Source: Promethearchaeota archaeon (lineage in GTDB: Archaea > Asgardarchaeota > Lokiarchaeia > Sigyniarchaeales > SOKP01). From it: 37,474 nt of DNA. Below are positions 31,295 to 32,140 of this stretch, one piece after another. A program made the position numbers and the translations under genes. The first letter of the stretch is position 1; the number at the start of each line of letters is the position of its first letter. The stretch is from NCBI GenBank assembly GCA_048941265.1, contig JBHLNT010000024.1, positions 1 through 37,474 on the forward strand. Reading direction: 5' to 3'. Under the pieces are notes generated by a model. It saw only the letters and a list, made by a program, of their open reading frames with translations. It was not told the DNA's origin and ran no database searches.

Positions 31295-31783
31295 TTGAGC
31301 GAAAAAAAGAATAAAGAAAAAAAAATGTTTAAAAGGGTCAAAATCAAGGAAAAGAATGGTTTATATGTTTCCTATGATAAGAAAGAATTAGAAAAATTTG
31401 TGCCTACCTTGATTTCTGAGATTTCTAATGAAAAAAAAACCTTAAAAATTGATTCTGTTGAAAAAGAAAGTCAAAATGCATCTGATAAGCGAGAAATGCT
31501 CCCCGAGGCCTGTAATTCAAATGAATTGATCGATCCTGGAGCAATTGATTTCATTCGTAGATGTACTACATATGAAGAGGCTTTCGAAATATTAGATTAT
31601 TTACTTAAAAGAAAAGAACTAACTAAAAGTGAATATGAAGAATTTAAGAGGAAATTATCACAAAAGGATGGATTAAAAAACCTCATTGAAGACAGCGGAG
31701 GTTTTAAAAAACCAGGTTATTATGTGGAAAAATATTATAAAAAAGAGTTTTATGATATAAAATCTAAAAATAAAAAAGTTTAA
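31295..31783 (+). CDS. DUF2095 family archaeal protein
   Basis: PGAIDFIRRC.T.EEA.EI.DYL.KR.E.T...K.PGYY. Confidence 0.8.
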   Translation: MSEKKNKEKKMFKRVKIKEKNGLYVSYDKKELEKFVPTLISEISNEKKTLKIDSVEKESQNASDKREMLPEACNSNELIDPGAIDFIRRCTTYEEAFEILDYLLKRKELTKSEYEEFKRKLSQKDGLKNLIEDSGGFKKPGYYVEKYYKKEFYDIKSKNKKV

Positions 31784-31785
31784 AT

Positions 31786-31862
31786 TTATATTGATGATGA
31801 AATTGTGACAAATTGAGTTACTGCTCATAGCTATGATGTTGTCGCCCCAATCTGAAATATAA
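31786..31862 (+). ncRNA. Box C/D guide sRNA; D guide predicts 2'-O-methylation of 23S G2251 (E. coli numbering)
   Basis: Terminal stem TTATATT/AATATAA; C ATGATGA 31794-31800; 12-nt spacer; D' TTGA 31813-16; C' ATGATGT 31833-39; 12-nt guide TGTCGCCCCAAT; D CTGA 31852-55. Confidence 0.88.
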
Positions 31863-31870
31863 GCTTAAAT

Positions 31871-32140
31871 TTATATCATTTTGTAATTATTTTTTCTTTC
31901 TAAATTTTTTTTGAAATTAAGCCCTTTTTCTTTTAAAAAATATTCATTATTTTGCTTCTCAATTAGATTTAAATCAATCAGAACGGGAATTCTCCCTTTG
32001 ATGCAAGAGAGCGGTATACCTGAAAACAATTTTATAGTTTCAATATCCTTAGCTCCGTGGTCAATTGCTAATAATATTTCAATTCCCATATTTCCTAGGA
32101 GATATTTCAAATCATCCAGGGTTTCTTCTTCTTTTGTCAT
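31871..32140 (-). CDS. Small winged-helix protein
   Basis: EILLAI...DIETIK..SGIP...IK.RI..L..LNLIEK....YFLKEKG pattern. Confidence 0.7.
   Translation of the reverse strand: MTKEEETLDDLKYLLGNMGIEILLAIDHGAKDIETIKLFSGIPLSCIKGRIPVLIDLNLIEKQNNEYFLKEKGLNFKKNLERKNNYKMI

Follow-up and report, generated by a model that had tools for sequence, protein, structure and literature searches.

Methylation of the nucleotide equivalent to Escherichia coli G2251 in the P-loop of 23S rRNA (Gm2251) is carried out by RlmB in E. coli and is guided by snoRNAs in yeast, human and Arabidopsis (PMC11542601, available text). The same text assigns yeast 25S Gm2619, human 28S Gm4196 and Arabidopsis Gm2620 to the guides snR67, SNORD31 (U31) and plant U31, respectively. 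In three of seven archaea, C/D sRNAs have been predicted to act on alignment position G2520, the equivalent of G2251, and the supplementary table of the same study contains Sac-sR110 of Sulfolobus acidocaldarius, a C/D box sRNA found by RNA-seq with its target given as 'NP' (Dennis et al. 2015, PMC4644070, available parts). Gm1950 of Haloarcula marismortui is equated with E. coli Gm2251 in Table 1 of PMC11542601 and G1950 with E. coli position 1909 in PMC2584109; because the available parts of these two sources equate it differently, we do not use the haloarchaeal modification as a precedent. Among titles and abstract openings, we found no description of a C/D sRNA from Asgard archaea, and the available portions of PMC8339473 and PMC7994747 contain no mention of Asgard C/D sRNAs.

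Here, we describe a 77-nt locus in a 37,474-nt stretch of DNA of a Promethearchaeota archaeon of the class Lokiarchaeia (the whole stretch, positions 1 to 37,474 of contig JBHLNT010000024.1 in assembly GCA_048941265.1, is referred to as the window), which very probably encodes a dual-guide box C/D sRNA with G2251 as one of its two predicted targets. The predicted target nucleotide of its D guide is the E. coli G2251 equivalent and is thus the same as that of snR67, SNORD31 and plant U31, and also the same as that modified in bacteria by RlmB, a stand-alone SPOUT enzyme (PMC11542601, available text); unlike the window RNA, RlmB acts as a protein alone, without a guide RNA. The archaeal G2520 sRNAs share the machinery, the targeting rule and the target with the window RNA, as far as the available parts of Dennis et al. 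(PMC4644070) describe them. They come from thermophiles possessing tens to hundreds of such RNAs, whereas in the mesophile-like 5-Mb Lokiarchaeial genome our motif scans found one canonical member.

Likeness to the eukaryotic guides extends to the guide string itself. In weak Rfam alignments of snoU31b and snR67 to the window RNA, the string UUGUCGCCCCA is common to both sides, including in snoU31b the U that forms a wobble pair with G2256; the scores lie far below the gathering thresholds (16.2 against 37 bits for snoU31b, RF01285, and 12.4 against 55 bits for snR67, RF01177). The string common to snoU31b may simply be forced by an invariant target. Differences are also clear: in U31b, this guide precedes D' and not D as in the window RNA, and the eukaryotic snoRNAs act in a nucleolar context. 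The second target of snR67 is U2724, not helix 89.

Results

Anatomy of the RNA and its genomic setting

The original prediction placed an intergenic box C/D sRNA of 77 nt at 31786..31862 on the forward strand, and every element of such an RNA is present there. The terminal stem consists of a 5' strand, TTATATT (31786..31792), and a 3' strand, AATATAA (31856..31862), which form 7 bp and close the C/D K-turn. A bulged G (31793) lies between the 5' strand and the C box AUGAUGA (ATGATGA in the DNA, 31794..31800), which is followed by the 12-nt D' guide AATTGTGACAAA (RNA AAUUGUGACAAA, 31801..31812), for which U2460 in helix 89 of 23S rRNA is the predicted target at D'+5, and by the D' box UUGA (TTGA, 31813..31816). 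The D' box adjoins an internal stem-loop (31817..31831) that closes the C'/D' K-turn; its strands GUUA and UAGC (GTTA at 31817-31820 and TAGC at 31828-31831, one of the pairs being G.U) enclose the loop CUGCUCA. After a TAT bulge (31832..31834), the A and T of which also begin the C' box, come the C' box itself, AUGAUGU (ATGATGT, 31833..31839), as read from the sequence and from the alignment of homologues; the 12-nt D guide TGTCGCCCCAAT (RNA UGUCGCCCCAAU, 31840..31851), which places C31847 at D+5 with G2251 of the P-loop as its predicted target; and the D box CUGA (CTGA, 31852..31855). All of these elements lie on the forward strand. The two K-turn bulges of the prediction, GAT (G31793 with the first A and T of the C box) and TAT, are both present, and the two guides are, as had been counted, exactly 12 nt long.

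In an alignment of 42 homologues, the C and D boxes and the GA of the D' box are invariant; the window's D' UUGA and C' AUGAUGU are box variants that retain the GA dinucleotides. The locus thus combines the features by which archaeal box C/D sRNAs are recognized, namely the C/D and C'/D' boxes, spacers of approximately 12 nt, a terminal helix, a guide-target match at +5 (with the 23S rRNA of relatives) and the presence of genes for L7Ae, Nop5 and fibrillarin in the genome. The terminal stem can be extended past a 2-nt mismatch by TTTAA/TTAAA (31780-31784 and 31865-31869); the 5' part of this extension includes the stop codon of the upstream gene, and relatives of genus g2 have a similar extension of approximately 12 bp, which could be a processing helix or merely AT-rich palindromy.

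The sRNA is preceded on the forward strand by a DUF2095 gene (PF09868, E 7.5e-11; 31295..31783), the TAA of which occupies 31781-31783, so that, as predicted, the stem begins 2 nt after the stop codon. Downstream, a convergent ORF of 89 aa (31871..32140, reverse strand) gives a weak winged-helix match (PF14947, E 1.9e-4) below the curated cut-off. The order of the DUF2095 gene (same strand), the sRNA and a convergent small ORF is the same in all 30 loci for which flanks are available. This synteny and the 2-nt spacing are compatible with processing of the sRNA from the 3' end of the DUF2095 mRNA, as the original prediction suggested; we infer both expression and co-transcription, such that the sRNA gene would probably be transcribed together with the DUF2095 gene and then trimmed to the stem. 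By eye, no archaeal TATA element was found at a fixed distance upstream, an inspection that is uninformative because of the AT-richness of the region. A low-complexity 51-aa ORF (31673-31828, reverse strand), which looks spurious, lies antisense to the 3' end of DUF2095 and the 5' half of the sRNA.

Chance occurrence, conservation and stem covariation

Three motif scans of increasing laxity, applied to both strands of the 5.0-Mb genome (361 contigs), each returned 31786-31862 as the sole match, and the same three scans of the reversed genome returned none; a fourth, looser scan gave two matches against one in the reversed genome. No Rfam family reached its gathering threshold anywhere in the window, and permissive thresholds yielded only weak C/D-box matches. 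With blastn, close copies were found in most genomes of the family. The alignment of homologues comprises 42 distinct sequences from 10 genera; in it the boxes are constant, GUCGCCCCA at the heart of the D guide is nearly invariant, and the flanks, stems and spacer ends vary.

Both stems are maintained by compensatory change. In the 42 homologues, 94.4% of stem cells are paired, as against 32-43% when the partners are slid by 1-3 columns. In a covariation test to which the two stems had been supplied beforehand and for which 500 shuffles served as the control, 11 of the 12 stem pairs show changes on both sides, and none of the 500 shuffles reaches the observed values. Compensatory changes occur in all seven pairs of the terminal stem; in the internal stem (helix 2), both partners have changed in four of the five pairs, and the paired share of cells is 97.1%.

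A covariance model derived from the aligned homologues and run on 141 sampled genomes of the class found one copy each in 113 of them; by family, the matches amount to 99 of 117 genomes in f1, 12 of 13 in f2, one of two in f7 and none of eight in f4, f5 and f6 together. Among 117 other genomes of the phylum, it gave two weak matches, one in G175, which is treated below, and one in G170, which was rejected as it resembles coding sequence and has no guide. One further locus, L159 in genome G076, contains a stretch of N within its internal loop, its D spacer does not resemble the P-loop complement, and it is possibly a decayed copy.

Predicted pairing of the D guide with the 23S P-loop

The window's assembly contains neither a 23S nor a 16S rRNA gene, and the pairing was therefore read against the 23S rRNA of relatives; the string that the original prediction had proposed for checking the P-loop was GTTGGGGCGACA. 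Positions were numbered by ungapped comparison with the annotated rrlH gene of E. coli K-12, and a blastn search with an archaeal 23S segment against E. coli genomes gave no match. On rrlH, the D+5 rule places C31847 opposite the second G of UGGGGC, which is 2251, exactly as predicted. The accompanying expectation that the rRNA would carry U2248 and A2256 is not supported: all 29 readable 23S genes of the family, including those of four genomes of the same genus, have C2248 and G2256 (CUGGGGCGGC, GGCUGGGGCGGCU), and in one of these four, G001, the D guide is identical to that of the window. When contigs from four metagenome runs that contain DNA of the organism, one of them its possible source, were compared with the G001 23S gene, no variant amounting to 5% of depth or more appeared at the P-loop or the helix-89 site; this evidence from the P-loop is weak because many organisms contribute to the contigs. 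A P-loop reading CTGGGGCGG with mismatches to the guide, which the original prediction had named as speaking against it, is literally what the relatives' genes contain, but G2251 as the target is not refuted by this finding.

With the same-genus 23S sequence GCUGGGGCGGCU, the D guide pairs at positions N3-N11, giving 9 bp (eight Watson-Crick pairs and one G.U); U at N10 forms the wobble with G2256, and N2 (A.C) and N12 (U.U) remain unpaired. For this guide by itself, other rRNA sites rival the P-loop: by an ad hoc score, one non-conserved site in G003 ranks above it and two others tie with it. Taken alone, the match between the D guide and the P-loop is not statistically striking.

Support for this target comes from the covariation of guide and rRNA in relatives. 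We collected 70 sRNA sequences and parsed 67 of them (those of G076, G017 and G043 were left out), and 29 of the 67 come from genomes with their own 23S gene. In these 29, the paired run covering N5 spans 9 bp in 22 genomes, 10 bp in one, 8 bp in four and 5 bp in two. In family f2, where the rRNA has G2248, the guide has C at N2 in all six genomes and a C-G pair results; two f1 genomes, of two genera, have G at N2 opposite C2248, and the remaining 21 of the 29 have the A.C mismatch. In G024, the guide bases at N10-N12 are G, A and C opposite that genome's own C2256, U2257 and G2258, and every C-to-U change in the D guide lies opposite G. Changes in the guide thus accompany those of the rRNA at 2248 and 2256-2258, and this pattern argues for the predicted P-loop target. 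In 67 of the 70 sequences, the D guide retains its register to box D. Against the P-loop count the internal mismatches of the G024 and G065 guides to their own 23S rRNA, the A or U that G035 and G039 carry within the otherwise invariant CCCC of the guide (a 23S gene was not found for either genome), the D guide of G076, which is unlike the P-loop complement, and one extra base before box D in G017 and G043, which would shift the target to G2250. The A at N2 (31850 in the window) opposite C2248 is kept in most f1 genomes, in f7 and in the distant G175, although G or C does occur at this position where it is able to pair.

Predicted pairing of the D' guide with helix 89

The original prediction had given no target for the D' guide. 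Among rRNA sites, it fits the 5' strand of helix 89 best: N2-N10 pair without interruption (9 bp) with GUUGUCACGAGU of same-genus 23S rRNA, so that U2460 falls at D'+5. This 9-bp pairing to helix 89 is present in G001, whose D' guide is that of the window, and in G065 the pairing extends over 10 bp. Changes on the two sides again correspond: G024 has G at N3 opposite C2458 and A at both N7 and N8 opposite U2462 and U2463, and where genus g11 of family f2 has A2464 and G2465 opposite guide U and C (with a C-G pair at N10), f1 has G2464 and A2465 opposite U and U. This covariation supports U2460 as the putative target, more weakly than for the P-loop. In many genomes, uninterrupted pairing is limited to 6-8 bp and ends at a mismatch at N8. 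For no organism did we find methylation of a U2460 equivalent reported.

Many homologues of genus g2 (L024, L028 and L033-L046) have four to five extra bases between the D' guide and its box, often with a second xxGA; the D' spacers of 15-17 nt that result in many g2 genomes would break the +5 rule. In two Asgard 23S genes, the peptidyl-transferase core contains insertions a little upstream of helix 89. In the gene of G001 (L083, 1366-1500), insertions of approximately 95 nt and 31 nt surround a CCCCGGGG-GUAAC motif, and metagenome contigs join across the region (joint 1365 to 1501); in the gene of G184 (L173, about 1621-1722), approximately 100 nt are inserted after GGGGAUAA. These insertions are possibly rRNA introns.

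The same pair of guides in swapped order

The second weak match outside the class, in G175 from another Asgard order, is a real C/D sRNA, with its P-loop guide at D' and its helix-89 guide at D. The 23S gene of G175 itself was not found, and that of a congener was used for the pairing: the D' spacer forms 10 bp with the congener's P-loop, again with A at N2 opposite C2248, and the D spacer forms 11 bp with its helix 89, with U2460 at +5.

A similar arrangement appears in Sac-sR110, the sequence of which we paired by eye with rows of the S. acidocaldarius 23S sequence (available parts of PMC4644070). Like the window RNA, it is a dual guide with G2251 at +5 and U2460 of helix 89 at +5; unlike the window RNA, it uses its D' spacer for the P-loop and its D spacer for helix 89, and its D'-C' linker is short and has no stem. 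This likeness comes from the by-eye pairing and not from the covariance model. The guide order of Sac-sR110 is reversed in the window and throughout the class. The occurrence of both guides in G175 and Sac-sR110 indicates that the target pair is older than the class, with a guide order that differs by lineage.

Predicted protein partners and sRNA repertoire

The genome carries genes for fibrillarin (261.8 bits), Nop5 (212 bits) and L7Ae (81.5 bits), all scoring above the curated cut-offs. Apart from the locus described here, the motif scans of this 5.0-Mb, 91% complete genome revealed no canonical box C/D sRNA; degenerate sRNAs would escape such scans. A snoscan-like search for further sRNAs, requiring a C box, then CTGA and then at least 9 Watson-Crick bp to rRNA, retained 14 of 244 candidates in the genome and three of 41 in the reversed genome; there was no enrichment, and none of those retained was sRNA-like. 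The C/D sRNA repertoire of the genome may be very small.

Discussion

We consider it highly likely, from its anatomy and its covariation with rRNA in relatives, that the 77-nt gene encodes an archaeal dual-guide box C/D sRNA whose D guide is directed to G2251 and whose D' guide is directed to U2460. The D guide most likely directs formation of Gm2251, and the D' guide probably directs that of Um2460. By the mechanism of this class of RNA, L7Ae would bind the terminal C/D and the internal C'/D' K-turns, Nop5 and fibrillarin would next assemble on the RNA, and each 12-nt spacer would pair with nascent 23S rRNA; fibrillarin would then methylate the 2'-OH of the nucleotide facing guide base five, counted upstream from D or D'. 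In this way, the D guide would select G2251 in the P-loop (helix 80) and the D' guide U2460 in the 5' strand of helix 89. We infer RNP assembly and both methylations from the RNA elements, the guide-target covariation and the protein genes described above. G2251 and U2460 both belong to domain V and to the peptidyl-transferase centre, with about 210 nt between them, and the RNA may therefore additionally keep the two helices in contact while folding proceeds.

Taken further, this last point leads to a different emphasis, in which the RNA is chiefly an assembly chaperone that pairs helices 80 and 89 simultaneously and methylation is secondary, or absent at one site at least. The position of the two targets, separated by 209 nt within one domain, fits this role, as do the retention of the target pair even where the guide positions are swapped, the tolerance of the conserved N2 mismatch and the 15-17-nt D' spacers of many g2 genomes, which keep a pairing element while losing the +5 geometry. 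However, both spacers in the window have exactly the 12 nt that methylation geometry requires, 67 of 70 sRNA sequences preserve the register to box D, and G2251 is methylated in bacteria and eukaryotes (PMC11542601, available text). A chiefly chaperoning RNA is in our opinion unlikely, and the two roles are in any case compatible with each other. That the 31786-31862 motif is a chance box-like pattern in AT-rich intergenic DNA and not a gene is hardly credible: although no Rfam family matches at gathering thresholds, the element occurs as one syntenic copy in each of 113 out of 141 class genomes, its boxes are invariant amid variable flanks, and both stems show compensatory changes.

The remaining alternatives concern what the D guide recognizes. 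Its true target could be another RNA (a tRNA, an mRNA or another ncRNA) with the P-loop match being incidental, since by our own estimate a fixed-register 9-bp match is expected by chance roughly 0.1-0.5 times in approximately 5 kb of rRNA, and one rRNA site scored above the P-loop and two tied with it. These competing rRNA sites are not conserved between relatives, whereas the covariation with the P-loop stem is specific; moreover, the genome contains no other exact complement of the 11-mer, the 17 sites with one mismatch are near the control level (18 observed in all against 12), and the best matches to tRNAs, among the 26 (an incomplete set) predicted by aragorn contig by contig, have at least two core mismatches. 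We regard another target as very unlikely. The proposal of the original prediction that the D guide is fully complementary because the 23S rRNA carries a compensatory U2248-A2256 pair in helix 80, reading CUGGGGCGG, draws on the exact complement of the guide being UUGGGGCGACA and on the window's own 23S rRNA, which is missing from the assembly and so is not directly readable. It is highly improbable given the C2248 and G2256 of all 29 family genes, four of the same genus among them, and the identical D guide of G001; the metagenome contigs likewise contain no variant at the P-loop amounting to 5% of depth or more, N10 is C in G065 and G175, which fits G2256 and not A, and the sole exact TTGGGGCGACA in the genome is the antisense strand of the sRNA gene itself.

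With a dual methylation guide as the preferred reading, the swapped order in other lineages raises the matter of its origin. The modules of the window RNA and of the swapped forms are identical in circular order, and this, along with the unusual stem by which the internal K-turn is closed in the window's family, suggests, as a speculation, circular permutation. The former internal C'/D' pair would have become the termini, the former terminal stem would survive as the covarying internal stem, and the P-loop guide would have moved from D' to D. The window RNA would then be the Lokiarchaeial form of an ancient dual guide for G2251 and U2460, common to Sac-sR110 and another Asgard order, with its modules circularly permuted; it might, in addition, be the genome's last remaining canonical C/D sRNA and the archaeal counterpart of eukaryotic snR67/SNORD31. 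We put forward this fuller history tentatively, as a possible but doubtful one.

In kind, the RNA is an ordinary archaeal methylation guide and a new example of a well-known RNA type. Eukaryotes have their closest known relatives in the Asgard archaea, and the locus provides a conserved C/D sRNA as a concrete Asgard case, with two targets open to testing in the ribosomal catalytic centre, one of which is the nucleotide guided by eukaryotic snR67/SNORD31. The covariation between guides and targets shows the extent to which a guide can drift, with the conserved A.C mismatch at N2 being tolerated, and the swapped guide order across lineages offers a case for studying the rearrangement of guide RNAs.
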